Positions 2,068 to 60,500 of a stretch of DNA of 64,000 nucleotides are shown one piece after another. Each line of letters begins with the position of its first letter. The first letter of the stretch is position 1. The stretch covers positions 10,923,081 to 10,987,080 of the forward strand of contig NC_057750.1 in the NCBI RefSeq assembly GCF_004010195.1, read 5' to 3'. The notes under the pieces are model-generated. The model did no database searches. It saw only the letters and a list, made by a program, of their open reading frames with translations, and was not told the origin of the DNA. The position numbers and the translations under genes were made by a program. Origin of the DNA: Chiloscyllium plagiosum. Lineage: Eukaryota.

Positions 2068-2422
2068 CAACCACAGGGGATAAATGTGGATTTCAACAGC
2101 TTTCTCATTTCCCCTCCCCCCACATTATCCCAGTCCCAAGCCTCCAACTCGGCACCACACTCCAGACCTGTCCATCACTGCCCCCTCTGACCTATTACCT
2201 TCTCCCTCACCTTCATCCACCTATCACTTTCCCAGCTACCTCCCTCCAACCCCACCACCCTCCTATTATCTCTCACCCTGACCCACAAGCCTCATTCCTG
2301 ATGAAGGGCTTATGCCTGAAACGTCGATCCTCCTGCTCCTCGGATGCTGCCTGACCTGCTGTGCTTTTCCAGCACCACACTCTCGACTCTAATCTCCAGC
2401 GTCTGCAGTCCTCACTTTCTAC
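2068..2422 (+). mobile_element. Penelope-like element 3' end / pseudo-LTR (family A) carrying a hammerhead motif
   Basis: ORF tail LQPQGINVDFNSF, C-rich tract, then CTGATGA-A-GGGC-TTAT-GCCT-GAAACGTC (2298-2325) and the shared tail GATGCTGCCTGACCTGCTGTGCTTTTCCAGC. Flanked by a CAGTTG duplication (2062-2067 / 2423-2428). Confidence 0.7.
2294..2329 (+). ncRNA. Minimal type-I hammerhead ribozyme motif (family A)
   Basis: CUGAUGA (2298-2304), stem II GGGC/GCCU, GAAAC-GUC (2318-2325). Stem I is weak (2 bp). Confidence 0.6.
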
Positions 2423-3359
2423 CAGTTGGGCTGAATGGCCATTTTCTTTGCTCTACGTTACATGTAATTCATCTAACATTCTTCTGTCCACTTGCAAATA
2501 CTTCTATAGCTGTCCTCAGACTTTATTGCCCCTTAATGTGGTATTGTGTGTTAATTTAAACAGTTTACATTTGCAAACTCACATCATTTATGTACATCAG
2601 AAACAGCAGGAATCTGAGCAGCACTCCCTGAGCCATGACATTCCATCTAATTCCCTCATTTGACATTATTCTTCTAAACAGCGCACGCTAGTTTCCTGTT
2701 TTAGCCAATTCCTTACCCACTTCCCAACTCGATCAAGAATACTCAATATCTTAAGCTGAAGTAACAGCCTTTCATGTGGAACTTTACAAAAGACGATCTG
2801 TCAATGCAAGTATTTAAGTGGACATTTAATTGTTCTTGGGAAAGCAAAATTACCCAAATCGAAATAAACAGAGATGAAAGATGCAGTAACCCTTTAGTCC
2901 AGGCTTCTTTCCAATAGCCAGGGAACCAATGTGAATTATTTATATTCTTCTTGGTGGACTAATCCAGCGTCTGAAGCACCCTGGCCAAACTGACAGGATT
3001 TGTTATTTTGGAGATGCTCAGCAAGTTCTGAGAGTTGCAAGCTGCAAGTCACCAGGAAGGGCCAGATGCTCAGCTTTGAATAATCACCTGTGGTGCACAT
3101 TACATCTTTTGAAACATCTCTCCTCAAGCTTTGCAATTCACTCCTCATTCACTCTTCTGCTGAGGAGCAGAGGGTGATGCTTCAGATTTCAATCCTGCTC
3201 CAAGGCACCAGGTAATGCCAGAGTGAAACTGATCCTAACACATGGCCTCTATCCAGTCTCTCATAGAAATGACACCCTCCCCACTCCTTCATTTCTGCAG
3301 CAGGATCTCCTCCACAACTGATTAGCACATCTCAATGAGGGCCACCACTAGGAAATATC

Positions 3360-5520: not shown

Positions 5521-5829
5521 TCACCTAGTCACACAACAAGGGAAAGCCATTCTGTTACAAAATTCCATTAGATCATTTCTGATCGTTGCCTTAAGTCCAT
5601 CTAACTGTCTTGGCTCCATATCCCTTAATACATTTATACAACAAAAAGTTATCAATCTCAGTTTTGAAAGTTTTGACCCAAGCCTGAACAGATTTTGAGG
5701 CAACAATGATGAGCGGTAATGTCACTGGAATTCAGGTGTTTATTTTTGAAGCTGCAATAGTGCAGAGGTTGTATTTTTCGATATGAAAGCCCAGAATCAA
5801 ATCCATCCCAATCCAGTGAGTATTGTATT

Positions 5830-6735
5830 TTGGTAAAACAAACAAGGGCAGGACTTATACAGTTAAAAGTAGGGCCTTGGGTAGTGTTAAACCTAATGAT
5901 GGAGCAGCGCTTCGAAAGCTTGTGATTTCAAATAAACCTGTTGGACTATAACCTGGTGTTGCATGATGTCTGACTTTGTCCACCCTAGTCCAACACCGAT
6001 ACCTCCACATCACAATAAAAAGTAGGACCTTGGGTAGTATTGTAGAATAAACAGAAACTTTGGGGTTCAGGTACACAATTCTTTGAAGTTTGCATCACAT
6101 ATAGATAGGATGGTTAAGAAGGCCTTCAGCAGACTTGCCTTCATTGCTCAGACCTTTTGAGTGTAGGAGTTAAGAAGTTATGTTAAGGTTATACAGGACA
6201 TTGATGAGGCCTCTTCTGAAGTACTGTGTCCAGTTCTGGTTGCCCTGTTATAGGAAGGATATTATTAAGCTGAAAAGGATTCAGAAGAGATTTACCAGGA
6301 TGTTGCTGGGAATGGAGGGTTTGAATTATAAGGAGAGGCTGGATAGGCTAGGAGTGTAGGAGGTTGAGGGGTGATCTTATTGAGGTTTATGAAATAATGA
6401 CAGCTATAGATAATGTGAATGGCAGGTGTCGTTTCCTTAGCATTGGGGATTTCAAGACTGGTGACATATTTGTAAGGTGAAAGGAGAAAGATTTAAAAAT
6501 ATGTGAGGAGCAGTTTGTTTACACAGAGTTTGTGTGCGGAATGAACTTCTAAGGGAAGTGGTGAATGCAGGTACAGTTACAACATTTAAAATATTTTTAG
6601 ATAAGTACATGAATAAGAAATGTTTGGAGGAATATGGACCCAGTACAGGCAGGTGGGATTAGATTAGTTTGGGATTGTGTTCGGCATGGACTGGTTGAAC
6701 CGAAGGGTCTGTGTCTGTGCTATCTGACTCTATGA
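5830..6735 (+). mobile_element. CR1 LINE 3' fragment, interrupted by a short Penelope-type insert (~5889-6015)
   Basis: CR1 3' motifs and tail gactctatgac. The insert is flanked by an imperfect ~25-bp duplication, taaaagtagggccttgggtagtgtt / taaaaagtaggaccttgggtagtatt. Confidence 0.8.
5889..6015 (+). mobile_element. Short Penelope pseudo-LTR (family B) with a mutated hammerhead motif
   Basis: CTAATGA-T-GGAGC-AGC-GCTTC-GAAAGCTT-GTG (5893-5924), followed by AATAAACCTGTTGGACTATAACC as at 31940. Confidence 0.65.
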
Positions 6736-7559
6736 CTTTACCGAGTGACACACAAATAAAGAGAAGGCCATTTAGCCTCTTCAGCCAAGTCTGGCTAATG
6801 CTCTGGGAACGTGTGTTCAAGGAGAAAATGTAATCAATAATCTGGGATATAAATTAATCTCAAAGTAATGGTGATCATGACAAATATTATTGATTATCAA
6901 AAAAAATTGGTTGCAGTATACTTGAAGGAGGGAAATCTGCTGACCTTCCCATAGGCGAACACGTCACTCCAGTCCCACAGCACTGTAGTTGACTCCCTCC
7001 GGAATGGCCTTTGTGAGCCACTCTGCTCAAGGGTGTTGAAGGAAGGGCAACGAATGCTGGCCTTGACAGTGATGCCACATCTACTGCAACACTGAGAGGC
7101 GGATAGGAATGTCAATAACGAGATTCCGAGAGGTCTGGTAGAATAAAGAAATCTACAGACAGAGGGACATTATTTATACCGCAGAAGTGGAACGTTGGAT
7201 GCATGTAAAGCTATTAACATCTGCTTCAGGGGGGTAATTGAAGTGTTCTGCAATTCCTGGCAGGTATGTTTTTTTGAATGCAGTAATGAGGCTCTAAGAA
7301 ATCCTTAATTGCCTACAATCAGTGCTATTCACAGCTTTCATCCTGCAAGTGCTAGCAATTGAAGCTGAAGCCCCCATGGGCTAAGAGGAAATGTGTATTA
7401 CAGCAAATTACAAAATGCCGTGGAACTCAAATCATCCCTGTGGGTGGGAGGAAGAGACGCTTGGAATAATGTACTTTGTAATTTAGTGACAAGAAAGAGA
7501 TTAGAGTCAGAATATAGGCAGATATTTGATCGGGACAGTTAGGGAGATGTGCTTCAATA

Positions 7560-7692
7560 AAAGTAAAGTTCTGCAAATGCCCGAGATCTGAAATAAAAAC
7601 AGAAATTGCTGGAGAAACTCACCAGGTCTGGCAGCATCTGTAGAGAGAGAAACAGAATTAACCATTTGGGTCCAGTCTGATTTCTACAGAAC
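7560..7692 (-). mobile_element. Degenerate Penelope pseudo-LTR (family C)
   Basis: Reverse complement of the ctctccacagatgctgccagacctgctgag tail seen at 21030-21070 and 12170-12250. Hammerhead core decayed. Confidence 0.55.
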
Positions 7693-9115: not shown

Positions 9116-9263
9116 GAGGAGAAAGTGAGGACTGCAGATGCTGGAGATCAGAGCTGAAAATGTATTGCTGGAAAAACGCTGAAGAAGGGTTTATGCCCGA
9201 AACATCGATTCTCCCGCTCCTTGGATGCTGCCTGACCTGCTGTGTTTTTCCAGCAACACATTT
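9116..9263. mobile_element. Fold-back Penelope-derived insert (family A) with hammerhead motif and 16-bp TSD
   Basis: An inverted tail copy is followed by CTGAAGA-A-GGGT-TTAT-GCCC-GAAACATC (9179-9206). TCAACTCTCCATTGAA is duplicated at 9100-9115 and 9264-9279. Confidence 0.75.
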
Positions 9264-12200
9264 TCAACTCTCCATTGAAACCTCATTGAATCCAAACTCC
9301 ATATTATTAGAGAGTTAGAAGCCATGCAAGTTTTCTGTACATTTTTAATTGACCTGTTGAGATACATCATGACACTCTCGGGTAGGAGGACCTTTTGTCT
9401 TAAACCAATATTGTGAAAGGAGTGTTCAAGTCATCAGATGAAGGAGACCTATTGAGGATTTTTGCTTTACAAATGGGCTAAATCAGTCATGATAAAAAAA
9501 AACAGCATTAATTACCAAAAAGATTCTGTTATGATTTCCTGAGGCTGAGAGAATGCTCCTCAAACTGGGCCTTGAGCCACTTGTCTCATTACATCCGTGC
9601 TGCTATTTGCTCCCATTTTGATTCACATACATACTCCATACAGGGCTAACGGGCAGCTCATATCGCACGCCTGATGGTGGGGTGGAACAAAAATGAGAGG
9701 CTAGAAAGAGAGGGTGAAAACTAACTGGAGAATGAAGGAGGGAGTAAGAAAGTGAGAAAAATGCAGAATGAAGACAAATGAATTAAACTGAAGAGACTTG
9801 CAGCAGGAGGGAGGGAGCAAGGAAGAGTCATAGAGACATAGAGATGTAGAGCATGGAAATAGACCCTTCGGTCCAACTCATCAATGCTGACCTGATATTC
9901 TCGTGATGGAGAATATGAGATTAAGAGAGAATGTGGGATTTGTGTTGATAGACAATTTTTTTATCATCAGTGTAATCTCGATGGGCCGAATGGTTTATTC
10001 TGTACTATATGCTTCAGTTTATCTAAAGATAAAGGGGTGAGGACTCAGTAGAAAGGTGGAAGCGGGAAGCAGTAGTGAGATATAGAGGGGAAAAGAGGAA
10101 TGGGAAGAGAGATCAAAGAGGTATGAGAAGATAAAGGATGGATGGAGGGAGGCTTGGCTGTTGTGAGTCAGCGTCCCTGGAACATTTTCCATGTCTAGGG
10201 TCACACGAGGCAGACAAAATGCTTAGAGCTGCTTTTCATGGCTTATTTTTCCTGTAGGGGGCTATGAAATTGAAAACAGGATCTGTATGAGAGGATCCAG
10301 ACCACATCATGTATAACTAAAACAGGAATCTCTTGCTCTCTTACTGCCTACCATTCGCAAGTGATGGAAGGGTTGGCGCGTCAATCCACACAGATCTGAC
10401 CATGTTATAAAAACACCTTGCTTGACCATCAAGGCCTGGAGGGTCTGACTCAGAGGCAGGGATGACACCCTTCGTCCTTGGAACTGCACCCAGTAACGTC
10501 ATCCCCCCCCCCCCCCAGCCCCACTTCCCCAGGGGAGGGGTTGAGGTTGCAGTTATGGAACCTGAGCTTGGGTTAGCATCTCAACCTTGCAAGCAGTGAT
10601 CAAAGCTGGCAGAAACTTGCAGGACTTTGCTCCAGTTCTGAACCTGCAGCCAGTGCCCATCCCCAGTACTTAGTGCAGAAATACAGCTGAGCACTGGTTC
10701 CAGGGAGCAATCCTTGGCACCCCAAGCTCGCGTGTAGGAGTAGTGCAATTTGCCACAGAAGTGGCCACAGAAAGGGAACAGCCCCGTTTTGTTGGCACAT
10801 CCCCTGACAGGAGCAGGGTGGGCACTAGGACCAAGGAGAAGCCCTGCAGTTAGTGGCAAGTCTAGGATTAATTGGAGAGGTAGTTTGACAAGACTGCTCT
10901 TGATGATTGTCTGGATTCAGAGGTCTTTATTTCAGAAAACTTTCAATAGATAAACCCTGTTGCTGCTCACCTGGGTGCCAGAAAGCTCATTCTTGATGGG
11001 GGTTTGTTTAAAGAAACGGAAATCCTAATAGCGAAGCTCATTGCCACATCTCTCCCAGCGTCTCCTGGTAAGTCGTTCAGTTATCTCTGTGTTCCTACAT
11101 CCCCTTCATTCCTAACCAAATAGCCAGCCAACCGATACCCCCTCCGGTCTAACCCCTACTCTCCAACACTTGGTCCATATCCCTGTGGGTTACAGCACTC
11201 CACAACCACATCCAAGCAATTTCATTTAATGTGCTGAGGGTCTCTGCTCCCATATCGCTCTCTCCCTCTGTGGGAACAATGCCCCCTTAAATCCACTCTC
11301 CTGCGTCTTATTCTCAGTCTGTGGGGAGAAATTCCGCAGCCAAATTGGTGAAAACAAGTTCAACTTGCAGCATCTAAAAACCCAGGCAAAAAAATGCTGC
11401 AAGTGCCTGTGTGAGGAGTGAGGGTCAGAAAAGCTACGCACACAATTAGTTTGCATGACTCCCACATTCTCTGTCCGTCTTGTTTGGACCCTTTCTCTCG
11501 ATACCATCCTCACTTTAATCTCTCTCTTGCAGTTCTCGTTCCCTACGCCCCCCTCTCCCGCTATCCCGTTCTGCTTGTCCACCTCTTCCTTCTCATTTCA
11601 ACACCAATCCGTGTTGGTGTAGCTTAAATGCGCCCCAAGGTGTTTCACGGAAGCTGCCATGAAACAAATTTTGCAAACTACCTAAGGAGATTTTAGGTCA
11701 AGTGGTTAAAGAGATAGATTTTAAAGAAAATATTAAAAGAGGAAAAGGAGGCAGAGAGACAAAGCGGGGTGGGGGGTGGGGGGGTGTTTTACGTATGTAT
11801 GTATCCATATTAGATTAGATTTCCTACAGTGTGAAAACAAGCCCTTCGGACCAACAAGTCAACACCGACCCTCCGAACAGTAACCCACCCGCCTCTGACT
11901 AATGCACCTAACAACTATGGACAGAGATGCTGTCTTTGACTGTATATCTATTTGTGCGATTATGTCTATATATCCTCATCAGATCCGGCTGGATTTGGGT
12001 TTTAAAGGACATCTGGTTAGATAAGAAAAAAACTCGATCTCCTCAGGGTTGGAGTGCCTTCCTCCTCAATTGTAGCTCTATTCTTTTCACCCATGGTAAT
12101 GCCCACCCCAGAGCTCTGTGGTATAAAGGAATGTCCCAGTTCTGATAAAGAATCACTGGACTCTGTTTTCTCCCAACTGATGCTGCCAGGTCTGCTGAGT

Positions 12201-12279
12201 TTCTCTAGCAATTTCTGCATTTCTTTTCAGATCTCCAGCATCCAGAGTTCTTTGTTTTATATTTATCTGTTTAGCTTGT

Positions 12280-12990: not shown

Positions 12991-14055
12991 TGTGTAACTT
13001 TTTTTGCTGTGCTATTTCACTGCTTTTTCCACCTGCTAACTACTGATTCATGCAGTCTTGCAAAGGCCTCATTATTCACAAGAGTGCTTGGCATAGCTCT
13101 GTTAAACTGTACACTCTCTGCACTTTAAGTTAATTGAGTCATTGGCAAAATTGATGGAACTGGTTCCCACACAGAAAGGCGACAGTTTCAGAGGAGAGCT
13201 ATTTTTGAGATACTAATGAGAAAACTAGGAAGAGAGACATGATCCAGAGTGCAGGATAAGGCCAAGGGTGAGAAGAGTTGAGTGGAAATCAGAAAGAAGG
13301 AAGGCAGCCCCATCCCTGAGGAGATGGTTGTCTTTTCATTCCTAAGCACATTGTCCTCTAAATGTCAACCCCAAACCTTCCCTAAGATCCCAAACCACCA
13401 CCTACTGCCCCAAGCCCGCGACTTACCTGGGTATGGGGTTCGATGGGCCTCCTCTTTCACGAGTCTGCCCACAGTCCTGGCAGTGCCCACTATGCGGTAT
13501 AAGGAACGTCCCCATTACAGTCAGTTTGAACTTGAAGCATTAACTCTGTCTCACTCTCCACAGATGCTGCTGGACTTGGTGAGTTTCTCCAGCATTTAAG
13601 TTGTTACCACCAGAACAGATTATCTGCCCATTAGCTGTTATTGGGAGCTTGCTGTGTGCATTTGGCTCTTACATTTCTTATATTTTATCAATGGACCCAC
13701 TTATAAAAAGCAGAGAATTGATCATAAAGTAAGCTGACCAATAATGTTTTTCATCAGCCAGTTCACACACATCTCAAGAACAGGTGAAACTTAAGCCTTT
13801 TGGCTCACAGGTAGGGTCACTACCATTATGTAACAAGAGCTCTGAAAACTCTGAAGCAACATCTCCTTTGCTGAACATGTTCAGATATGTTTTGAGATTC
13901 CCCCGGGGCAAATGGAACTTGAACCCAGACCTTGTAGCCCAGAAGCAGGGAAAGGTACCAGCATGCCACAGGAATGGTACTACATCTTTTACGAAAACTT
14001 GAAGATTTCAATTGTTCAATTTCTAAAAAAAAACTTACTTTGTTTGACAGACACA

Positions 14056-14073: not shown

Positions 14074-14099
14074 CATTGGGAGGAAGACACTCTTACGGA

Positions 14100-15896: not shown

Positions 15897-15899
15897 AAA

Positions 15900-19655: not shown

Positions 19656-20394
<739 letters not shown>

Positions 20395-20571: not shown

Positions 20572-21085
20572 AAAAACCAAAAGATGTGCAGATGCTGGAA
20601 GTCAGAAACAAAAACAGAAATTGCCAGAAAAGCTCAGGTCTGGCAGCATCTGTGGAGAGAAATCAGAGCTACGTTTCAGATCCAGTTCTGAGGAAGGGTC
20701 ACGGGACCTTTATTTTTTAGATTAGATTCCCTACAGTGTGGAAACAGGCCCTTCAGCCCAACAAGTCCACACTGACCCTCTAAAGAGTAACCCACCCAGA
20801 CCGTTCCCCTACCCTACATTTACCCCTGACTAATGCACCTCACACTATGGGCATTTTAGCATGACCAATTCACATCTTTTTTGGAATTGTGGGAGGAAAC
20901 CCACGCAGACACGGGGAGAAGGTGCAAACTTCACATAGACAGTCACCCGAGGTGGAATCAAACCTGGGTCCTGGCACCGTGAGGCAGCAGTGCTAACCAC
21001 CAAGCCACCGTGCTGACCTGAAATGTTAACTCCAATTTCCCTCCACAGATGCTGCCAGAACTGCTGAGCTTTCTATTTTTGCTTG
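20572..21085. mobile_element. Fold-back Penelope pseudo-LTR (family C) whose hammerhead is split by a minus-strand HE1-type SINE (20710-21014)
   Basis: AGTT-CTGAGGA-A-GGGTC-ACGG-GACCT [SINE] GACCT-GAAATGTT-AACT. TSD GACCT at 20705-20709 and 21015-21019. Confidence 0.7.
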
Positions 21086-21613
21086 TGTTTGGGGTTGAAT
21101 ATTAACTTGTAAATCTGACCATAAGATGGAGGAGCAGAAGTTGGCCTTTCAACCCATTGAAACTGCTCCACTATTCAATAAGTTCATGTCTGATCCGATA
21201 ATCCTCAATTCCACTTGAGGGCCTTTTCCCGGTAATCTTTTATTATGTTACTGATTAATAATCTGTCTATCAGAGCCTTGACTATACTTAATGACCCAGC
21301 CTCAACTGCCCTCTATGGTAAAGAATTCCACAGATTCACTACCCACTGAGAAGAATTCCTTCATTCTCTTCCATTGGCAGGAGGTAAGAGTGGAGAAAGT
21401 CCTGATTTGCCCTGATAGAAAGAAATTGGAGCCTCTACAACTGTCACTATTCATAGGTCCAGGCTACAATTTGCAAGTAAGAATGTATGATACCTCAGTA
21501 ACTTGAACGCCTTGGATGCAACGGATGGGAGAACTGGAGAACCCAATTAAAGAATAGATACAGAGAAACTACCTCCATTGCTCTGGGCACGCAAACCTGA
21601 AATGAGAAGTGAA

Positions 21614-21895
21614 TTTCCAGCTCAGCACTGTCCCCATGACTTCTCCTACCTGCCTACCTTCTTTTGCACCTATCCACTCCACCCTCCTCCCTGACCTATC
21701 ACCTTCATCCCCTACCCCACTCACCTATTGTACTCCATGCTAATTTCTCCCCAACCCCACCCTCCTCTAGCTTATTTCTCCACGCTTCAGGCTCTCTGCC
21801 TTTATTCCTGATGAAGGGCTTTTGCCCGAAACGTCGATTTTGCTGCTCCTCGGATGCTGCCTGAACTGCTGTGCTCTTCCAGCACCACTAATCCA
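21614..21895 (+). mobile_element. Penelope-derived non-coding insert (family A) with intact hammerhead core and 14-bp TSD
   Basis: AAATGAGAAGTGAA is duplicated at 21600-21613 and 21896-21909. C-rich body; core at 21808-21835. Confidence 0.8.
21804..21839 (+). ncRNA. Minimal type-I hammerhead ribozyme (best-preserved copy)
   Basis: AUUC-CUGAUGA-A-GGGC-UUUU-GCCC-GAAAC-GUC^GAUU. All invariant core residues are present, stem II is perfect, stem III is the loopless palindrome ACGU, and stem I pairs 3 of 4 positions. Confidence 0.7.
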
Positions 21896-22409
21896 AAATG
21901 AGAAGTGAACAGTCAAGGCCTGAAATCACATAGTGCGTTTTCCCACTCTGAAAGCTCCTCCTTTAAATGTCAGTAGGTTCTGGTTGTCAATTGGAGCTTT
22001 CCAGAGGTATAGATAAGAGTTTTATCAGGAATAACAGATATTGTTGGTGCAGATAGGATGGGCCAAATTGCCTTCTTAAGCACTGTAACAATTCTGTAAA
22101 CAGATATGAAGCAAAGACAGGTAAATGGAGTTGAGGTACAGAGGAAGTTTGATCCAATAAATGGGCAGTGACTAGGGCCTGAAGAACCTGCTCTAGCTCC
22201 TGCACTTCCAGCTACCTGCTTCATTAAAGGTGAGAGGGCATCTTAGCAGTCACAGCTCTGCTTATTGCTGTGGACAGTATGGAATCGCAGTAGTCAAACT
22301 CCATCAGCCATTCAGCTCTTTTAAATAGAATGAACTTCTCCAACTGTGGTCTTTTGAACATGCCCAGTTTTAACTGCCCCACCACTGTTAATTGAGTGTC
22401 TAGAACTCC

Positions 22410-31506: not shown

Positions 31507-31565
31507 TACGTAAGAACATGTGATTTGGAAGCAATGGAGCCTGCACAATTTCCAATACAACCATG

Positions 31566-31984
31566 ATGTGGAGGTGCTGGACTGGGTGAACAAATTTAAA
31601 AATCACACAACACCAAGTTATAATCCAACAAGTTTAATTGGGAGTAATAGCTTCTGGAGCACTGCTCCTTCATCAGATAGCTGTGGAGCAGGATCATAAG
31701 ACCTAGAACTAAATTATCTCGGGAATGTGATTTGAAAGAAGTTCTGAGATTTACATATTAATGAACCAAAATCTGCAACCCATTCTAAAAGATGAACGAC
31801 TTAACAGCAATTTAGGTTTGTTCAATATATTGTATCAGTTGAATGCATGACAGTGATCTTTTGCTATAAATTCTGTGTCTGATGATCCTGCTCCACAGCT
31901 ACTGATGAAGGAGCAGCACTCTGAAAGCTAGTGCTTCCAAATAAACCTGTTGGACTATAACCTAGTTGTGAGTGATTTTTAACT
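31566..31984. mobile_element. Inverted-repeat Penelope-derived insert (family B) with one hammerhead on each strand
   Basis: Plus: CTGATGA-A-GGAGC-AGC-ACTCT-GAAAGCTA-GTG (31902-31933). Minus: CTGATGA at 31676-31670, then A-GGAGC-AGT-GCTCC-AGAAGCTA. TSD CAATA(C/A)AACCATG at 31553-31565 and 31985-31997. Confidence 0.75.
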
Positions 31985-31999
31985 CAATAAAACCATGGC

Positions 32000-37315: not shown

Positions 37316-37429
37316 CTATTCCAGTCAGTTAAGGATGTCCTCATGGAAGCTTCGAAATAAAAGTTCATGCAACACAGACTAGCAAACAGTCAGGGTAGGG
37401 GATAAAAGATATTTAAAGCATTCAAGAAC

Positions 37430-40260: not shown

Positions 40261-40468
40261 AGGCAAAAGTACATAAGCTGGAGGTTAGAGTCAAGAGTGC
40301 GGTGCTGGAAAAGCACAGCAGGTCAGGCTGCATCTGAGGAGCAGGAAAATCGACGTATCAGGCAAAAGCCCTTCCGACAGCCTGTTTTGAACTTTTGCCC
40401 AAAACGTCAATTTTCCTGCTCCTTGGATGCTGCCTGACTTGCTGTGCTTTTCCAGCACCACACTCTTG
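40261..40468. mobile_element. Fold-back Penelope-derived insert (family A) with 14-bp TSD
   Basis: ~80-bp inverted arms (~40290-40372 and ~40392-40470), each with a partial hammerhead (stem II plus mutated GAAACGTC). ACTTAACTGTACAT is duplicated at 40247-40260 and 40469-40482. Confidence 0.75.
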
Positions 40469-42985
40469 ACTTAACTGTACATTGCAATCAGGCTCTGGAG
40501 CTTGTAGGTTCTCCCAACCACCATTGCCAAGGCACACAGTGAGCAACAGGGTGCTTATATACTTAACTGGCATCAAATATTGGCAGAGGCAAAGCGCTGT
40601 TTAGTAATGATTTTGAGTCCTTCACCTTTCATACTGCATTAACTCCATCCAAAATGGTTTACCCATCACCTGACTGTCACTAGAATTAAAAGTCTCACTT
40701 TGGTGTTCAAAACCCTGCCCCTCCGAGCACACATTTTTGCTCACCTCTTCTTCCAGGCCTATTGTGTATCTCTGATTTCCTTTGCCCACTAGAAGTTTAA
40801 TTGCCTAGGCTCTAAATGCTCTAATTGCATTCTTACACCTCTTCACTTATGTCCTGATGCCTAATTTGTGAAAAATTCTTTCATGGGATGTGGATATCAC
40901 CAGCTGGACCACTGCTTTGATTGCCCATCTCTAACTGCCTTGTTGAAGGTGGTGGTGAGCTGCCCTCTTGAAAGGCTGCAGTGTGCGAGATACAGGAACA
41001 CTCACACTGCTGGGGAGTGTGTTCTGGGAATGTGATCCAGTGATAGCAGAGGAGCAATGATATCTTTCCAAGTCAGGACAGTGAATAGCTTGGATGGGAA
41101 CTTGCAGGTTCCTTTGTATTTGCTACCCTTGTTCTACTAAATGGTAGAGGTCACAGGTTTGGAAAGTGCTGTCAAAGGAACTTTGGTGAGTAGCTGCAAC
41201 TTATCTTTTAGATGGTCCACATTGCTGTGTACCAATGTGTCAATGGTGAAAGAAGTGAATATTTAAGATGATGTATAGGGTGCTAATGAAGTGGAAAGCT
41301 GTGTCCTCATTGGTATGGAGCTTCTCAAGTCTTAGTTGTGTCCTACTCAACTATGCAAGTACTGTGTAGTCTGTTACACTCTAACTTGTGGTTTTCGACA
41401 GCGCTCAAACTTTGGAGAGGCAGGAGGCAAGTTACGCACCAGAGAATTCCTGGATTCTATGCGCTCTTGTAGGTACAGTATGCTTATGGCTGGCCCCATT
41501 CAGTTTCTGGTAAATAGTTAACCTCGGATGTTGATAATGGGGGATTCACGGATGTCAATGACAGCACTTGTCAAGTGCCTTCTAACATTGAAGGCACTAT
41601 AAAAATCCAAGTTGCTGTTGCTTCCACAGTGTTTGCATCGCCCAAGCTGCCATGGGTGCTTGGAGCAGGAGTGATTTAGTAAGTAGGATCCAAACTCTTT
41701 GAAATAATTTGTTTTCTTCAGCTTCTTAAAAAAAACATAATACTGAAACATTTGTTATGAACTGTTTCAAAATAAATGAGATTATTTAAAGCCGAGAATG
41801 GTATCAGGAATAAAAAGCACTTACACCTCCTTCTTCAATGAGTCACTAGCTATCAAAGTGGAACAGCAGGTGAATCATAATTCCTGGCCTCTTTCACTGA
41901 TTGGGACTAAAATAAAGTCTATATTTTCCACCATAAACAAAACATGATCAGTTGATGAAAGCGTCAAGAGAAGCAATCTCGCCACACTGACTGAGCCCTT
42001 CCAGCTCCTGGAGGAGGGAGCTGACATCTTGCAAATGCACAAACAAATCGGCAGAACTGTACTAATTGGATAATCATTTGCTTTTTCTAAGTTACATGTT
42101 GAAGGGAAATTATTGATAAGAACATGTGCTTACATGGTGGTGGTGGTGGAGGAAAACTCCCCCAATCTGCTTTGAAATAGCAGCAATTGGATGCTTTATT
42201 TTCACCTGGGGAGGCAGACAAGGACTTTGTTTTAAACATTGATTGAAAGATTAGTCAGTGTCTGCTAGGTTTATCGTGCTCAAGTCACTACAGTGGACCT
42301 GAAGCTCACTATTTTACAACTCAGATAGATGACTCTCATGCACTGAGCCACAGTTTAAGGGTTTACTGTACCATTAGGTATTCCCCAGTCTAGTGGCAAA
42401 TATTAAATGGGATGGCTTTTGTCATAGTGGTATTATTGCTGGACTATTAATTCAGAAAAGCAGGTAATGTTCTGGGGACCCAGTTTTGGATCCAACCATG
42501 GCAGATAGTAAAGTTTCAATTCAAATTTATAAAAAACATGGAATTAAGAGTCTAATGAAGATCATGAAACCATTGTCGATTGGAAAAATCCCTCTGCTTC
42601 ACTAATGTCCTTTAGGAAGTAAACTGCCACCCTCACCTGGTCTGGCCTATATATGACTTCAGACCCACAGCAATGTAGCTGATGCTTACCAGCCCTCCGG
42701 GCAATTAGAGATTGCAAGTGTCACCCATATCCCATCAGTGAATAGAAAAATAAAATCATCCCTAAACCAACATTGCCAAAAGGTGATGATTGTAGGATGT
42801 TTCTGTACACGGGATCTTGCAGGATGTAACCTGGCTGCGAGGCATCCGACATAAGTTATAACATTTCAAAATGTATTTCATTGACCAGAAAGCACTTTGG
42901 GTTACTGAGGACAGATACTGTTTAAATGTGACGACAGACATTTCGCAGTTGGAGACTGGCTGAACCATCACCGCTGTCAGGATAC

Positions 42986-48239: not shown

Positions 48240-48652
48240 CTAGGATTTACAAAGAAAACACCCAAGAGGTTGTAAACATAAGTTGACATTGCTTAGTGGG
48301 AACATTGCAACACACGGACAACGTGACTTTACAGAGTTGCTCCTTCACCAATGCGAAAATTGCAGAATATTTAATTCTTTAAAAAAAGTTAGTTCCACTT
48401 TTTAAATCAAACCTCTGTGAAGCATTTACAAGATTTAAAAAAAGACGGTTGTTTAAATAGGATAGCAACTTTCAAGGCCCAAGGACACCTCAAGGCACTT
48501 TCGTTCTTTTTGATGTGCAGGCTTTTTTATGACTTATTGATCAGGGAGACTTTGAGTTTGACAGGGTGGGTGCCAGGAGGATGCGTCTCTTTCTGGTAGA
48601 ATAAAGACCAGGGATCTCTTATTTAAGATAGAGAGAAGGAGGAATTTCAAAG

Positions 48653-49262
48653 TTTGTGAGAAGATTTATAGCTCGGGTGCTCGTTGTTGTCGTTCTGTTC
48701 GCCGAGTTGGGAATTTGTGTTGCAGACATTTCGTCCCCTGTCTAGGTGACAACCTCAGTGCTTGGGAGCCTCCTGTGAAGTGCTTCTGTGATCTTTCCTC
48801 TGGCATTAGTAGTGGTTTGAATCTGCCGCTTCCGGTTGTCAGTTCCAGCTGTCAGTTGCAGTGGTCGGTATATTGGGTCCAGATCGATGTGCTTATTGAT
48901 TGAATTTGTAGATGAGTGCCATGCCTCTGGAATTCCCTGGCTGTTCTCTGTTTAGCTTGTCCTATAATAGTAGTGTTGTCCCAGTCGAATTCATGTTGCT
49001 TGTCATCTGTGTGGGTGGCTACTAAGGATAGCTGGTCGTGTCGTTTCGTGGCTAGTTGGTGTTCATGGATGCAGATCATTAGCTGTCTTCCTGTTTGTCC
49101 TATGTAGTGTTTTGTGCAGTCCTTGCATGGGATTTTGTACTCTACATTGGTTTTGCTCATGCTGGGTATCGGGTCCTTCGTTCTGGTGAGTTGTTGTCTG
49201 AGAGTGGCTGTTGGTTTGTGTGCTGGTATAAGTCCTAGTGGTCGCAGGAGTCTTGCTGTCAG
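48653..49262 (-). mobile_element. Penelope-like retroelement 3' fragment (GIY-YIG endonuclease plus pseudo-LTR with hammerhead)
   Basis: KTNVEYKIPCKDCTKHYIGQTGRQL...HEHQ is a GIY-YIG domain with the PLE CxxC insert. Hammerhead at 48761-48722. Confidence 0.9.
48722..48761 (-). ncRNA. Hammerhead ribozyme motif (family D, mutated)
   Basis: GCA-CUGAGGU-U-GUCACCU-AGAC-AGGGGAC-GAAAU-GUC^UGC. Stem I is GCA/UGC; A9 and C15.2 are altered. Confidence 0.6.
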
Positions 49263-49854
49263 GAAGACAGGAAAACAGGTCATGATGACTGAATTACCCA
49301 TCATGTTCAGGTTCGTGTGGGTTAGGTGCTTTAACAATGGGAAAATGCAGGAGGATAGGGTAGGGGGATGGGTCTGGGTGGGACACTGTTTGGAGGATGG
49401 GTGTGAACCCATTGGGTTGAATGGCCTGTTTCCACACTGTCGGGATTCTAAGGGCTTGAGGGAGATGAGCAGGAAGATGGAGGTTAGGCTCAACAGATCA
49501 GTCATGACCTTACTGACTGGCAGAGCAAGTGTCCATGAGCTGAAATGGCCTACTCCTGCTCCTAAATTTTATGTTAAAACACGGCAGTAACAAATCATGC
49601 ATAGCTCCCACAAACAGCAGTGTGATAACCAGATCATCCAATCGAGATAAATGTTGTGCAAGATAGCAAGCAAAATAGTCTTCAGTCATAGGTTCTGTTT
49701 TAGTTGTGTTGGTATCACAGACTAATGTATTTCACCAACATATCTACAGGTAGTGTTAATGAAACCAAGGATGACCTTCCAATCTGGCCACTCTGATTAT
49801 GAAAATTTATCAATGGGAATAATCAAATGTTGATTCTTGAAGATTTCAAGCAAT

Positions 49855-50040
49855 GGCCAATCCACCTTACCTGCACATCTTTGGACTACAGGAGGAAACT
49901 GGAGCACCCGGAGAAAACCGACACAGATAGAGAGAGAATGTGCAAACTCCACTTAGACCTGTCGCCAGAGGCTGGAACCGAACCTGGGATTCCTGGCACT
50001 TTGAGGCAAGAGTGCTAATCACTGACTCATCATGCTACCC
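49855..50040 (-). mobile_element. tRNA-derived SINE (HE1 type), partial
   Basis: Reverse complement of the SINE head and core (ACATCTTTGGACT...GCAAACTCCAC...GTGCTAA). Confidence 0.7.
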
Positions 50041-52527: not shown

Positions 52528-53118
52528 TTTTTGAGAAGATTTGTGGCTCAGGTTGACGTTCAAATTGTAAGATTGCTCGCTGAGCTGGTAGGTTTGTTCT
52601 CAGACGTTTTGTCACCAAGCTAGGTAACATCATCAGTGAGCCTCCAGTGAAGCGCTGGTGATCTGTCCCGCTTTCTATTTATGTGTCTTGGTCTCTTAGG
52701 GGAGTGATATCTTTTCTGATTTTTTTTTTCTCAGAGATCGATTTGGGCCCCATTTACCAATGTGTTTGTTGATGGAGTTCCGGTTTGATTGCTAGGCCTC
52801 TTGGAATTCCTGTGCGTATCACTGTTTTGCCTGTCCTAGGATGAATGTGTTGTCCCAGGCAAAGTGGTGCCCTTCTTCATCTGTGTGTAAGAATACTAGT
52901 GATAGTTGGTCATGTCTTTTGGTGGTTAGTTGATGTTCATATACCCTGGTAGCTAGTTTCCTGCCTGTCTGTCCGCTGTAGTGTTTATTGCAGTGCTTGC
53001 AGGGTATTTTGTGAATGACATTCGTTTTGCTGGTAGTTGGCACAGGGTCCTTTAGGTTCTTTAGTAGCTGTTTCAGTGTGTTGGTAGGTTTGTGGGCTAC
53101 CATGATGCCAAGGGGTCA
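52528..53118 (-). mobile_element. Penelope-like retroelement 3' fragment (GIY-YIG plus hammerhead pseudo-LTR)
   Basis: KTNVIHKIPCKHCNKHYSGQTGRKLATRVYEHQ; hammerhead at 52640-52599. Confidence 0.9.
52599..52640 (-). ncRNA. Hammerhead ribozyme motif (family D; G12->A)
   Basis: CUCA-CUGAUGA-U-GUUACC-UAGCUU-GGUGAC-AAAAC-GUC^UGAG. Perfect 4-bp stem I and 6-bp stem II; only G12 is mutated (52610). Confidence 0.75.
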
Positions 53119-54289
53119 AACCAAACCCTGACATTAAAGTACACCTTCTGAAGTGCTACATAGGTTATTGTGGCTCAGGTCTCTGGAGTGAGGCTTGAAC
53201 CCACAACCTGAAACAGGGGTGAGAGTGTTAAGCCTTGGCTCACTTTCTCTTGTAGCATGACGGTCATTTCATCTTCAATGTGCACAGCTCTTCAAAATAA
53301 TTTGGATAATTTAAAAGTATTGTGATGAATGTGAACATTGGCTTGTTGTAATAGCCTGGAGCACATACGAGGTATGAATTATTTCTTTATTACAAAAGTA
53401 CTAAAATTGACGGAACCGGTTTGTCTACTGCAGAAAATGTTTCACAAAAGAATGTAGGCGAGGATGAGACAGAAGACTACTTTGTTCTCTTGCAACATGT
53501 ATTACGAGTTTGCATTTTCTTTTGGTCCCACATTGTTTGGAATCATCACTATTTAAGGATGCAAAATTGAGAGCTCTGTTCAATTCTACCTTCCCATGCT
53601 GTCTGGCTAGGTCAGTGCTTAGGCAAGTGTCATATTGCATATGTGACCTGGCTGTTCTGTGCAGCCATGTATGTTGCTCACTGGAACACAATGCACACAT
53701 GCACAACTGCGTATTAGTCCCTAGCTCGTTACAGACAATGCAAAAAATATAACAGCAACTGGAATATGCACCTGTGACAAGAGATGATTTTGAATTTAAG
53801 TTTGAAGCCAAAATGAAATGTGAGAGAGAAACATAGCCATGAGTGAACTTGAATGTGTGGACAACTCTTATACTTATTCAGCAGGCACAAGACAGCAAGG
53901 AAGGCAGCTTGGGACACCTACCAATAATAATTCATGAACAACTTGCATTAACATTGTCCTTCAACATAGCAAAGTTTTCTCAGGTTCACACAAAATGTGA
54001 CAAGCAACGAGGGGGTATTAGGTCAGGTGATGAAAGAGTTGGTCAAAGATACAAGTTTTCATGAACATTTTTAACCAATGGAGTGAGAGGCAGAGTGGTT
54101 TAGGGAAAGAACTCCAGAGCTTAGGGCATAGGCAGCAGGAGGCATAACTTCCAATGGTGAACTATTGCAAATCCAGGGTCACGCAAGGGGCCAGAATTGA
54201 TGAAATGTAGAGTTGCAAGACTGAAGAAGATTGCAAGGATTAGGAGGGGACAAGGTGATTGAGGTATTTGAAAGAAAAAAAAGGTATTT

Positions 54290-54850: not shown

Positions 54851-57049
54851 GATCATAAAATCTGGTCTTATGAAATGTTAGAGTCAGAATGCTGCAGGAT
54901 CGTGAGTCAGTATAAATCAGAAAGCACAGGAGCTTTAGATCTGACATAAGTCAGACTGGACAACTTTCTTGTAAGTAGTAGTCCTGTGCATCCCCTCCAC
55001 TGCTGTGCACTCTTTGCCTCAAGAGCTGACATGCTGGATTGAGGGGCATCTAGCAACAAACCCTTGCCCCAGATGAGGTATTTCAGTTCCTCCAGTTTAG
55101 AAGAATGTGTAGGGAATAAGTCATGGTAGATGCATCTGAGCATTCAGCAAGGGCAGCACTGGCCTGGCTGCGATACAGTCCACAATCGAATAGCTGACCG
55201 ACTGACTGATTCACATACAAAGGACATCAACATCTGAGTTATAGTGGACCTGAACAAATAGAATTAAATTCAGTCATTCACAGGAGTGGATATAGGCAAC
55301 TGGTAACAAAAAAATACAATGCATTTCTTACACATACACTAACGTTAGCAAGTCTTGTCTCCACCACCGTTTGCAATTGAGCAGAACTGCAAAAATCATA
55401 CAGGATCAACAGAAATCCAATCTCTGAACAAGCTGATTAGACGAGTATTTGTACCTGGTATCGGAGGTACCTTGGTACCTTGGCTCAAGGTTATGTCTAT
55501 TCTTGTATCCTTCAGTCCTTTTCCTGAATGTCACCTTTACTCCCAACTCCGAGTCAATAAACTGTGGCTTCAGCTCATGCCAAAGGTTTCAGCACGTATA
55601 CGAGGGTGACACTTTGGTGGTGTACTGAGGGGGTACTGCATGTCAAGAATGCTATCTGTCAGAAAAGGCGTTGTTCTGAGACCCCAAAAGGATATAATGG
55701 ATCCCCTAGCCCTATGGGATTTCTCCCATCAGCTGGTCAATACTTATCTCACAATCAGCATCATGATTTTACAGAGCTTGAAGTAGATTACGACACACAA
55801 AGTAGAAATGGAAAAAACAACAAATTTGATACAAACAAGTTGTATATTTTAATATAATGCAGAAGTTTTCCATTTAGTTGGTAAGATTGCTCAGTACTGA
55901 TTATGAATATTGAGCTTTTAACGAAGTATTGTTTTACTTTATTCCACAAAAATCACAGATTAGAATTGTAGAACAGTTAAATAAAGAAGAACATTCAGCT
56001 CACTGTGCACATGTCAACTACTTGCAAGAGAAATTCACTTTTTCGATGGGGGCATGCAAAGCTTTTCTCTTCAAAATAATTATCCAACTCTGTCTTCAAA
56101 GCCAAGATTGATCCAGTCTCTTCCACAGTTCTAGATACAGCATTCCAATTAGTGCATGAAAAGGTTTCTCTTCATGTCATCATTGCTTCTTTTGCCAATA
56201 ACTTTCATTAACCTTCCAGCATTGGGAACATTTTCCTCGGAGTCTTCCCGATTTAGAAATATGGAAAATAGGAGCAGAATGCGGCTATTTGGCCATCGAG
56301 CTCAGTCCAACGTTCAGTTTGATCATGCTGATACTGTAGCTTGACGCTCTACTCCTGCTCTCTCCAACTGACACGTTTAGCCTGTAGAAATGTTAAATAG
56401 TGTCTTGGACTCCACAGCCATCTGTTGTAAAGAATTCTATGAGTTCAGCATCCTCTAAGTAAATTTCTCCTCATCTCAGTCCAAAATTGCGATCAAATAT
56501 CTTGCATTATGACCCCTTGTTCTGAAGCCCTTGCACTCAATCTGTGTAATCACTTTTAAATCTTCTATGAAATCACCTCTCATTCCTCTGAATTTCAGCA
56601 CAGTCCACAAGTAAAATCTACCCAATCTCTTCTGATTTGACAAAAGCTGCTGTTGCAGGAATCAGACTGGTGCACTTTCACTGCACTCCCCCATGGCAAG
56701 TATTTTTTTTGGTAAAGAGACCAAATCCGCACACAATGCTCCACTTGTAATCAAACTAAGACCCTGTACAGCTACAGTAAGACTTCTCTGCTCCTGCACA
56801 CAAACCATCCTGCAATGAAGCCAACATAATGTTTTCCTTCCTAACTGCTTGCTGTACATGCATGTTGGCTCTCAGTAAACAGTGTAAAAAGGACACCCAG
56901 GCCCCTTTTCACATACGTTCCTATTCTATGACCATTCAAATAATACTCTGAATTCTGATATTTTTCTACCAAAATGAACAACTTCACATTTATCCACATT
57001 ACCCAATTTCTCCAATCTATCTAATTTATATTTCCTAGTTCCTGCAAAC

Positions 57050-57525
57050 ATTCAGGTTGTAGGTTTGCTCGCTGAGCTGGTAGGTTTGTTCTCAGACCTC
57101 ATCATCAATGAGCCTCCAGTGAAGCGCTGGTGTTTTGCCCCGTATTCTATTGATGCATCTTGGTCTATAAGGTGATATCATTTCTAGTTCTTTTTCTCAG
57201 AGGTTGGTAAATGGGGTCCAAATCGATGTGTTTGTGTTTTTTTGGAGTTCCAATTTGAATGCCAGGCCTCGAGGAATTCCCGCGCGTGTCTCTGTTTTTC
57301 ATGCCTGAGGATGGATGTGTTATCCCAGTTGAAGTGGTGTTCTCCTTCATCTCTGTGTAAGGATACTAATGATAGTTGGTCATGTCTTTTGATGGCTAGT
57401 TGGTGTTTGTGTATCCTGTTAGCTAGTTTCCTGCCTGTCTGTCCAATGTAGTGTTTGTTGCAATCCATGCAGGGTATTTTGTAAATGACATTCGTTTTGC
57501 TGGTTGTTGGTAAAAGGTCCTTTTG
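57050..57525 (-). mobile_element. Penelope-like retroelement 3' fragment (GIY-YIG; hammerhead internally deleted)
   Basis: KTNVIYKIPCMDCNKHYIGQTGRKL...REFLEAWHSN. The pseudo-LTR reads CTCA-TTGATGATGAG-GTC-TGAG, so stem II and GAAAC are lost. Confidence 0.88.
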
Positions 57526-57557
57526 GTAAACCAAGGCCCCATTTACCCTCTTAGGTG

Positions 57558-60500
57558 TGTTATGAAGTTGAAGGCGTGTACCTTTTGAGAGAGTGAATGC
57601 TGCAAGCACCTGTCATATGACTGACTAGCAATCTGAGTGTACTGGAAAATTGAAAATATGTAACATTTGGCTGTGAAATAGATACCTGAGTTGGTTGCTG
57701 TTTTGACAACAATTCGAATCTAACCAATCAATTTAAATTATGCCCCAGGATACTAAAACCCAATTGATTTTGAATTAATTGTTCTTGCCAAACTTGAACC
57801 GATGAGACAATCTGATATTGGGCGGTATAAAAAGGCAGCGTCAAATTGTGTGCTGCTGAAAAAGCACAGTTGGTCAGGCAGCCTTTCTAGCACCACACAC
57901 TTCGACTCTGATCTCCAGCGTTTGCAGTCCTCACTTTCTCCTAGTTCAGTATAAAAAGGCAGGCAGTTTGAAAGTCAGACAGAGTAACTGCCATTGAGAC
58001 AGACCCAAATGCTCTCTACCAAAGGTACCTTTTCATATAAAAAATATTAAATTGATATTATTTTCGTTAAATAGTGGAATTTGGGAGTTCTCTGTTACTC
58101 ATATTTTAACTTTTTTTGAAGCGAGGTGCGTTTTTCTGGGTAGAGTCATAGCAGAAGGGTTCACTACTGTGTCGTAACAGTTTGGGGGCTTGGGTCCATG
58201 ATTTGGACAGGTTTAGACAGATCTGAATAGATTTGGGGTACAAAAGAGCCCAGCAGATTTAAACACTTGCCAATTAGTGTCCTAGATCTTTAAATAAAAC
58301 ATAGGTGAGATAAATTATTTAATTTCAGTTTCTTGTCGTTGGTTAAATTAAAAGTGAGAGAAATGGCTCTTAAGATTGCTAAAGAGGTTCTGGGGTTCGA
58401 AGACGATTCCCAAATTTGTCAAGAAAATTTAGAAAGACAGAAGAAGGACTTACTTTTAGAATTAGCAAAGAGGTTAGAATTGGGTCTAACCAGGGACAAA
58501 AGGAAAGCTGAAATTGTAACGGAGTTCATCAAACACTTGGATGTGTCAGAGAAACAGACAAGTGCAGTAGAGTTAGAAAAAAACCTAAATTACAATTGAG
58601 GAAAATGGAGTTAGAAGATAAAGGAAGAGAAAGAAGAGCCATGAGAGAGAGAGCGAAGAGAGAGAGCGAAGAGAGAGAGCGAGGCACAGACAGAGAGACA
58701 GAGACAGAGACAGAGAGAGGAATCTTAGCTGAGCAAAGAGAGAGAGAAGAAAGAGAATTTGAACTTCAGAAGTTACAAATTAATCAGAAAAGTCAAGTTA
58801 ACAGGATGGAGATGAAGAGAGAAGGTAGTGATGTATGCAAATATGTTAAAACATTGCCACATTTTGATGAGAAAGATGTCGAAATCTCCTTTACTTAATT
58901 TGAAAAACTGGTGAGGCAGATGGAGTGGTCAGAGAATTGTGGGTAATGCTCGTTCAGACTCAGCTGTTAAGCAGAGCTAGTGAGATGTTTGCAACTCTGT
59001 CAGATGAGGTTACGCAGATATAAACAGGCTATTTTGAGTGCTTGTGAATTGGTACCAGAAGCGTATAGACAGAGGTTCAGAAACATAAAGAAGGTCAGAC
59101 TTGTGCTGAGTTCAAAAGAATTAAACATAGTAATTTTGATAGATGGGTGCAGGCCTTAAAAATAGGTAAAACCTATGAGGCTGTAAGAGATTATTCTGCT
59201 GGAGGAGTTTTAAAAACTCACTTCCAGAGATGATAAGAATTCATGTGGATGAACAGAAAGTTCAAGAAGTGAGAAGAGCAGCAGAGATGGTAGATGTATA
59301 TGTATTGGTGCATAAGGCAAAATTTAACTTCTGGCAAGAATTTCATCCTGTGAAGGATAGAAATTGGCAGAAGGGGAGATTCTACACTACGAAGAGTAGA
59401 GCACACTGGTAATTCTTTACCACAGGCTAAAAAAGAAGCCCAAGACGGTGGAAAGGAGGTGAAAGGCCTCGGGTGTTTTCAACTGTAATGGAGTGGGACA
59501 CAGAAAATTATAGTGCCACTGGTTTAAGAAGGGCACTGGGAAAAGTGTTTTCACTGCCAGAAAGTGGGACGCCTAAAGTCACAGTGCTGGTCATTAAAGA
59601 GAGGCAGTGTAGGAAAAGATGTAAAAGAGACAGAGCCAGTGGCATTATTGAAAGTAGTAAAGGAAACCCCAAAAAAAGTTCAGGAGCTGCAGGAGAGTGC
59701 ACAGCCTGAGCAGGGGCTGGGTATGGAGTTAGTGCCTGATCTCTATAAAGACTTCACCTCTGTGAAAGAGTGGTAATTTGTGGGATCGATGGACAGAAGT
59801 TTAGCATTCCCCTATGTAAGAGCAGGTTGGAGTGCCAACTCAAGACTGGGGAAGTAACAATGGGAGTGATTGACAGAGTCTGGATTAGTGGTGCTGGAAG
59901 AGCACAGCAGTTCAGGCAGCATCCACGGAGCAGCGAAATCGACGTTTTGGGCAAAAGCCCTGACAGAGTGTCAGTTCCAGGAATACAGTTTATTCTTGGG
60001 AATGATTTAGCACGATCCAAGGTGGGAGTGATACCCCTTGTTGTGGAGAAGCCAAAGAAACACCAGGGAACTGAGGAGTTAAAAGAAAAATACCCTGGAA
60101 TTTTCCCTGACTGTGTACTAACAAGATCCCACTATCATAAGTCACAGCAAGAAGCAAAGACTAAAGAGAAAGATGAGTTGAGGTTCAGTTAGCGGGCACC
60201 CTGTTTGATGTAATGGTGTGGGAAAAACCTGCGGGTCAGGCAGAAGTGTTTAATCCTGAAAGGCTAATGAACTTACAACAGAAAGAGGAGACAATAAAAG
60301 ATATATATGTGGACGCACACTCCGAAAAGGAGTCCGAATGTATTCCTGAGCGTTATTATCTTAAAGATAGAATCCTAAGATGAAAATGGAGACCAACAGC
60401 AGGTTAGTGCAGAGGAGAAATAGGGAGAAGTGCACTAGATTGTGTTGCCGGTAGCATACAGACAGGATGTGCTATGGGTAGTGCATGGATTACCAGTAGG

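Follow-up and report, generated by a model that had tools for sequence, protein, structure and literature searches.

The hammerhead-ribozyme motifs described here lie in a 64,000-nt window (the whole stretch that was analysed) of the 3.56-Gb genome of the shark Chiloscyllium plagiosum, on contig NC_057750.1, in and around a CD225 gene, an RNase_PH gene and the first part of a third gene. They are almost certainly minimal type-I hammerhead sequences in the pseudo-long terminal repeats (pLTRs) of at least five families of Penelope-like elements (PLEs). As a whole, we consider it probable that these are PLE pLTR hammerheads whose short copies are dead by-products of reverse transcription running off uncleaved, capped RNA. 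A re-read of the window showed that all 14 positions listed in an earlier note on this DNA carry what was described there.

Hammerhead motifs and their carrier elements

A descriptor of the minimal hammerhead, consisting of CUGANGA, a stem II of at least four pairs, GAAA, a palindromic pair 15.2-16.2 and UH, was run on the window and on 30 dinucleotide shuffles of it as a control. It found three perfect cores, at 2298+, 21808+ and 31902+, against 0.0 in the shuffles; six matches with up to one deviation (shuffle mean 1.7, maximum 4); and 36 with up to two (mean 19.5, maximum 32). The perfect-core class exceeds chance, the one-deviation class does so modestly, and about half of the two-deviation class is chance. 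Nine motifs are recognisable in the window, with the core intact in those three only; the deviations of the others are given in Table 1. No hammerhead covariance model is among the eight Rfam matches to the window at E values up to 5; the best match, mir-1791 (E 0.005), falls on the inverted pair at 40277-40471.

Five families, here called A to E, are present in the window, 48758 being distinct from 52636, which corrects the four families set out in the earlier note. Their description as unrelated in sequence did not hold up, since A and C have common downstream sequence and D and E are related.

Family A cores lie ~265 nt downstream of the C-terminus of a GIY-YIG endonuclease, and longer copies include a PLE-type reverse transcriptase (RT), with a linker, CHRRNCKTC, between RT and endonuclease that is absent from D and E and was not seen for B. 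Families B and C likewise follow endonuclease ends, and D and E follow GIY-YIG domains without a CX2-5CxxC linker (RT and endonuclease were both read for D); the GIY-YIG Pfam scores of these element frames are below cut-off. The CX2-5CxxC linker is described as a motif of the Neptune and Nematis clades (PMC8557442), and family A appears to be Neptune-type, a clade placement made by linker motif and not by tree, while D and E appear to be of Penelope/Poseidon type. Family A resembles published Neptune-clade PLEs in its PLE-type RT, CHRRNCKTC linker, GIY-YIG domain, pLTR, tail and inverted 5'-truncated arm, a likeness in which the linker is shared with Nematis as well (PMC8557442); the endonuclease end of family C is similar. 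Families D and E resemble Penelope/Poseidon elements such as PAc of the anole in having no zinc-finger linker, a hammerhead in the pLTR and two 3' ends (PMC11167929), and differ in a predicted start 16-22 nt upstream of the core and in the rarity of short copies in our sample; the D and E copies here are old and broken. A protein search gave 140,867 first-look candidates; the 150 that were scored include open frames of 865 and 949 aa. The earlier assignment of these motifs to PLE terminal repeats, as type-I hammerheads of the minimal kind whose stem III is a palindrome without a loop, is borne out by descriptor matches downstream of GIY-YIG ends.

The 5' boundary of copies

We number positions from C3 of the core as +1, so that the predicted cut falls after +28 and the first base of helix I is -3. 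Copies end on the 3' side near +85-95 or +121-127, at two alternative sites ~35 nt apart. Among 139 readable 5' ends of family A (7 were set aside), 84 fall at -10..+14, with 31 of them at -4..-2, 28 lie beyond -20 and only 2 are at +27..+31. The 55 ends of family B include 27 at -12..+15, 13 at -7..-4 and none at the cut site. Genome-wide, purine-flanked starts make up 7.1% at -3 (1,136/15,263; 86 of 90 inspected were true breaks), against 1.3% at 0, 1.4% at +1, 1.6% at +2 and 1.6% at +29, and pyrimidine-flanked starts make up 0.6% at +30; these percentages were corrected by inspection of 30-90 loci each, and the denominator for positions 0 to +2 was taken from the genome-wide pattern count. 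The cut site is thus not preferred over positions within the first box.

Position -3 lies in an initiator-like context, and TATA-like hexamers lie about 30 nt further upstream, starting at -33 (group A3), -35 (A2), -36 to -39 (B), -32 (C) and -34 (C3, here a group label). TATA and initiator-like motifs have been described in rotifer pLTRs (PMC3846280), and a TATA-less internal promoter in Drosophila Penelope (PMC2377424). A search of the literature, with most subscription papers outside its coverage, found no report of a start site overlapping helix I and no paper on shark PLE hammerheads.

The flanking base carries a further signal. Of 39 solo copies that begin at -3, 29 have G as their flanking purine (G:A 29:10), against 12 of 29 (G:A 12:17) at three control positions and a background of 41% G (one-sided Fisher p=0.006); the first control, +1, was indistinct until point-mutant continuations were removed and two controls were added. 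A single extra G outside the target-site duplication is present in 3/13 duplication-bearing solo copies and in 0/10 controls. Untemplated G is a recognised trace of cap copying (PMC9341517), and a G excess specific to -3 is as expected from such copying.

Two other origins of the boundary were considered and rejected: a splice acceptor, as AG is missing there in family A and retained in the copies of family C, and a stall of RT at structure, as ends cluster instead at the far (5') edge. A third, in which the boundary arises not from a transcription start but from a DNA-level cut at an ATT-like site or from fold-back self-priming at the palindrome, is unlikely, even though the anole PLE endonuclease prefers 5'-ATT-3' (PMC11167929) and family A starts with ATTC, inverted pairs make up half of the copies and have GAATTC-type junctions in some cases, and self-priming has been proposed for such palindromes (PMC3846280). 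Solo copies of family A show the same peak (18/59 at -5..+4), families B and C start at other sequences, and neither the TATA spacing nor the position-specific G excess is predicted by such a cut or fold-back.

Fold, decay and genomic setting of the copies

In all families an extra base precedes stem II, which has at least four pairs and opens with G10.1-C11.1; this pair is G-C, or G-U after CpG decay, and A-C in one copy. Pair 15.2-16.2 is C-G in A, C3, D and E, G-C in B and T-G after CpG decay in C, and the ACGU palindrome is common to four families. Stem I shows three different Watson-Crick pairs at each of positions 1-3 across families, and a sixth family, with two copies (L066:4825 and L143:4100-4230), has U3-A8 in place of C3-G8 and an AGCU/AGCU helix I, a core switch known from Schistosoma (PMC4209133). 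With these three pair types and the U3-A8 core, the compensatory stem changes looked for among families are present. Within families covariation is weak, family B pair 2.3-1.3 being C-G in 26 copies, U-A in 4, U-G in 4 and C-A in 3. The earlier statement that stems I and II still pair needs qualifying for the commonest family, whose stem I has only 2 Watson-Crick pairs plus U-U and A-U.

Among 105 family A and 42 family B copies, subfamilies differ at N7, loop II, H17 (A/U in B) and the flanks, and changes in the core either sit at CpG sites or occur at the background rate. Identity to the commonest letter of each column is 0.932 in the core and 0.954 in the flank for G/C, and 0.993 and 0.971 for A/T, so conservation of the core does not exceed that of the flank, the latter being under constraint of its own at +46..+76. 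The two decay in like manner, from which it follows that selection acted on parent elements and that inserted copies drift; this decay is likely neutral, and the copies are for the most part inert. A monomer cannot form a stem III that lacks a loop, and published monomers do not cleave, while dimers cleave slowly (PMC4209133). Inverted pairs are predicted to fold into long duplexes, the pair of arms at 40277-40471 into one long hairpin of -135.8 kcal/mol. The picture of the dispersed copies as an active self-cleaving system is not supported, since most are mutated, truncated or in inverted hairpins, their core decays like the flank and starts at the cut site are rare.

The motif could in principle be a promoter or protein-binding element, or a non-cleaving relic that is never cut in the cell: it overlaps a likely transcription start, conservation of the +46..+76 flank matches that of the core, the commonest subfamily has a weak stem I, and ribozyme mutants left in vitro insertion of the anole element unimpaired (PMC11167929). 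We regard this as distinctly unlikely, since the compensatory stems and the switch from C3-G8 to U3-A8 make sense only for a catalytic RNA fold, and the cut-site nucleotide varies within the allowed set.

The motifs are abundant throughout the genome. Genome-wide, a 28-letter pattern of family A was counted 19,641 times (0 for its backwards control). A density sample of 100 stretches of 10 kb, unselected for the motif and drawn in 20 blocks, two of which flank the window, gave 49 perfect cores in 957,207 bases, or 51 per Mb, with 0 in the reversed sequence; extrapolation from the spread among blocks gives ~1.1-2.5 x 10^5 intact cores in the genome. Families A and B together contribute 197 copies of any completeness in the sampled stretches, ~1 per 5 kb, which fits the very high copy number and the density of about one motif per 6 kb claimed earlier. 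Helix I has at least four contiguous pairs in 10 of the 49 intact cores, three in 13, two in 22 and fewer in 4. Published hammerhead counts are ~4,000 for the coelacanth and ~9,000 for Xenopus (PMC4209133), a comparison that is rough because the descriptors differ. More variants with other stem II sequences were seen at L023:~700 and L220:2572, downstream of or resembling Neptune-type ends. The families in the genome exceed the six described here.

The closest known relatives are the minimal hammerheads of metazoan PLE pLTRs (reported in 2014 by Cervera and de la Pena, PMC4209133), with which those described here share a type-I core with an extra nucleotide between 9 and 10.1, the G10.1-C11.1 pair, a palindromic 15.2-16.2 pair, the lack of a loop 3, a short helix I, a mostly single and dispersed occurrence with nearby opposite-strand pairs, and a U3-A8 variant. 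They differ in number, with ~10^5 intact cores here against ~4,000 in the coelacanth and 9,000 in Xenopus under a different descriptor, and in helix I, which has 2-4 pairs here and 4-5 in the published class. Sharks are not among the organisms in those parts of that paper that were consulted. The kind of hammerhead was already published in 2014, and what is described here are new members and no new system; the families may already be listed in the supplements of a 2026 preprint (10.64898/2026.07.22.740005).

The anatomy of the insertions is that of PLEs. After exclusion of 16 of 162 aligned hits for low score, the family A set comprised 146 copies, 70 of them paired head to head, 10 accompanied by inverted remnants and 66 solo. 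Exactly one arm is tailed in 32 of 35 inverted pairs, and a single tail with an adjacent inverted 5'-truncated copy is a published PLE signature (PMC8557442). Target duplications span 7-25 bp; that of the family B insert at 5891 is unusually long (~25 bp, 5864-5890 and 6018-6043). Neighbours within 1 kb, counted over ~1 Mb, lie on the same strand in 5 cases, with a spacing of 417-870 bp, and on opposite strands in 42. At L143:4100-4230 the sixth-family copy faces an arm of family A head to head; the arms of an inverted pair can therefore derive from different families, which hints at a template switch in trans.

The short inserts might alternatively be autonomous-like 'retrozymes', self-cleaving and circularising non-coding RNAs that spread as a family of their own, and in favour of this most copies have no open reading frame (ORF) and non-LTR retrozymes, likewise non-coding, with type-I hammerheads and derived from PLE pLTRs, have been reported in one sampled chondrichthyan (bioRxiv 10.64898/2026.07.22.740005). 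At L025:1500-2400, moreover, an element has the ~110 nt that follow its tail fused to an ORF end and carries two direct pLTRs, their hammerheads 776 bp apart; it is an internally deleted, retrozyme-like derivative of family A. We nevertheless consider this highly unlikely. By definition (same preprint), non-LTR retrozymes form tandem arrays in which two or more ribozymes are complete, whereas the insertions here are solo or head to head and carry a PLE tail. No tandem hammerhead array is found in the window or among the five same-strand neighbours in ~1 Mb, and with 42 opposite-strand neighbours the tandem arrangement of retrozymes is absent. The inserts also stop at the tail sites of PLEs and do not include the TATA-like region upstream, and a unit cut from a circle would start at +29, a rare start. 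The separate non-autonomous retrozyme class postulated earlier is not supported, the 'ribozyme-only' inserts having a PLE tail, target-site duplications, head-to-head inversions and no tandem arrays.

Table 1 PLE-derived copies in the window, with the state of each hammerhead.
Positions	Strand	Feature	Hammerhead and remarks
2066..2423	+	Family A (Neptune-type) PLE copy	Last endonuclease codons, pLTR, core, tail
2298-2325	+	Family A intact hammerhead core	Cut predicted after 2325
5891..6011	+	Family B short copy from helix I	Core 5893, single deviation G5>A; ~25-bp target duplication
7565..7676	-	Old family C-type copy	Decayed hammerhead; absent from earlier list
9121..9177	-	Family A inverted tail remnant	Head to head with the 9179..9269 copy
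9179..9269	+	Family A short copy from C3	Single deviation G16.2>A; 15-bp target duplication enclosing the whole unit
12140..12254	+	Old family C-type copy	Decayed hammerhead; absent from earlier list
13520..13605	+	Old family C-type copy	Decayed hammerhead; absent from earlier list
20580..20686	-	Family C inverted arm with tail	No CUGANGA; intron of CD225 (TMEM91-like) gene
20684..21090	+	Family C arm	20688/21020, a single motif broken after stem II by a SINE-like insert of ~300 nt (~20712-21012); also C15.2>T
21612..21899	+	Family A 5'-truncated pLTR	Intact core 21808-21835; 14-bp target duplication
31561..31702	-	Family B inverted arm with tail	Core 31676, two deviations, AGAA replacing GAAA; last EXOSC5-like intron
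31703..31984	+	Family B pLTR	TATAAA 36 nt upstream of core 31902; core intact, yet first stem I pair broken (A-G)
40277..40374	-	Family A inverted arm from +6	Arm 40351, no CUGANGA box; EXOSC5-like intron 3
40392..40471	+	Family A arm from +12	No CUGANGA box
48646..49283	-	Family E (Penelope/Poseidon-type): GIY-YIG fragment, pLTR, core, tail	Core 48758, two deviations, A9>T and C15.2>T; EXOSC5-like intron 1
52528..53124	-	Family D (Penelope/Poseidon-type): GIY-YIG fragment, pLTR, core, tail	Core 52636, single deviation G12>A; antisense within BCKDHA-like intron 1
57049..57534	-	Family D copy; GIY-YIG fragment (Pfam E 0.007, below cut-off)	57100, stem II deleted
57881..57946	+	Family A tail remnant	Hammerhead absent
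59874..59961	-	Family A short copy from +8	Arm 59941, no CUGANGA box; 8-bp target duplication

The host genes were read from translations and Pfam: the CD225 gene on the + strand has exons near 20149-20304 and 24069-24227, the RNase_PH gene runs on the - strand from 50890 to ~27800, and the gene starting at 51234 on the + strand has its next exon 16 kb beyond the window. Among the 243 of 402 non-repeat frames scanned, there were no credible Pfam hits besides CD225 and RNase_PH. The names TMEM91, EXOSC5, BCKDHA and B9D2 are ones that we presume from human synteny and motifs, and the order B9D2-like, TMEM91-like, EXOSC5-like, BCKDHA-like over 13938-51345 and the flanking L148-L153 is what we take to be that of human chromosome 19. 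The EXOSC5-like and BCKDHA-like genes stand head to head with 350 bp between them. For the RNase_PH gene, four splice joints were found in three contig runs, whose status as RNA is a guess. The claim that several copies lie in host introns is confirmed, with 11 of the 14 listed positions intronic; of the intact cores, 21808 alone lies on the sense strand of a host intron. A PLE expansion in introns has been reported for the whale shark (PMC6765202, 10.1101/443036). In one raw single-cell polyA run, 1,975 family reads were found on both strands, 94% of which continue into unlike sequence; the family appears there as a passenger, with depth stepping up at -3. A second run gave 0 reads.

That the dispersed intronic copies are active ribozymes cutting host pre-mRNAs in cis or in trans through shared palindromes is very improbable: ~51 intact cores per Mb, an ACGU shared by four families and copies present in RNA on both strands speak for it, and against it stand an intact core on the host sense strand at only 1/11 intronic positions, the like decay of core and flank (G/C 0.932 vs 0.954; A/T 0.993 vs 0.971), published monomers that do not cleave and dimers that are slow (PMC4209133), and an EXOSC5-like gene that is spliced across such introns.

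Other repeats are interspersed with these copies. Fragments of long interspersed nuclear elements (LINEs), presumably of CR1/L2 type, lie at 3373-6740, 15901-18642, 22416-23700, 25607-26191, 37427-38941, 44270-45632 and 61851-63582, with RVT_1 hits at 22552 and 45150. A repeat of ~300 nt resembling short interspersed nuclear elements (SINE-like) occurs at 15593-15900, 19653-19973, 20712-21012, 31225-31505 and 49853-50041, its copy at 20712-21012 being the insert that splits the family C hammerhead. An inverted repeat of another family at 15382-15541 gave weak Rfam miRNA-like hits and no hammerhead match. The insert at 59874-59961 sits inside a decayed LTR-retroelement-like stretch (58500-61300), with an integrase hit (rve, E 0.007) on the - strand and gag- or protease-like frames recognised by eye, with no Pfam hit, on the + strand.

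Proposed mechanism and its meaning

In the mechanism that we propose, RNA polymerase II would start at the TATA-like box and an initiator overlapping helix I. The two pLTR hammerheads of a full element would join by base pairing of their palindromes, ACGU or AGCU, and make a cut after GUC or CUA that probably requires the help of an element protein, as published for other PLEs. Reverse transcription primed at the 5' pLTR tail would yield the 'ribozyme-only' inserts of 85-130 nt, and the longer 5'-truncated copies that include ORF ends (2066, 48646, 52528 and 57049) would come from priming at the tail of the 3' pLTR; in either case reverse transcription would run off an uncleaved RNA at its capped 5' end, with helix I base 1 as the start of that RNA, and the copies, once inserted, would decay neutrally and stay mostly inert. 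For the PLE of the anole, reverse transcription has been reported to start at two internal sites matching the genomic tail, with unprocessed RNA as the main substrate and a hammerhead that cleaves only with protein (PMC11167929). We judge run-off at the 5' end of uncleaved RNA to be fairly likely. We also lean towards cleavage occurring in the cycle of the parent element, and with like confidence towards a core promoter of Neptune-type PLEs that is built into the ribozyme, with capped, uncleaved RNA as the template in vivo.

Several observations weigh against this account. Starts at the cut site amount to 1.6%, against 0.6% one base later, and there may be a small cleaved fraction among the templates. 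Five of the 13 family B ends in the peak are bounded by a short reference. The A1 copy at 21808, as aligned, has no hexamer from the TATA list, the family A boxes are weak (TTAT), and in D and E the boxes, at -46 and -52, place the predicted start 16-22 nt upstream of the core, with only 1 of 12 listed D and E copies short. Only 3 of 13 duplication-bearing solo copies have the extra G outside the duplication, and 6 have a G within it. The single-cell run shows no pile of starts or ends, from a library type that cannot map 5' ends, and we give this result no weight either way. Predicted folds of monomers and homodimers give alternative hairpins and not the hammerhead fold, and no complete autonomous ORF framed by two direct pLTRs is among the copies read.

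Intact cores seem considerably denser here than in the vertebrates counted in 2014, which gives a large natural data set; the evidence on start site and cap-derived G is a further addition of our analysis. For the internal priming on unprocessed PLE RNA seen in vitro, the copy boundaries offer support from within a genome; they also point to a precise transcription start that overlaps the ribozyme, which narrows the possible role of the latter. If the proposed mechanism is true, a start at helix I base 1 would explain why helix I is so short, and hundreds of thousands of short inserts would amount to a fossil library of 5' rapid amplification of cDNA ends (5'-RACE) that retains the cap-derived G. 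At most a few percent of insertions would then stem from ribozyme-cut RNA. A cut 32 nt behind the cap would leave the RNA without its cap, and one within the 3' repeat would remove the priming site, so that the ribozyme may limit or time transposition instead of making its template.

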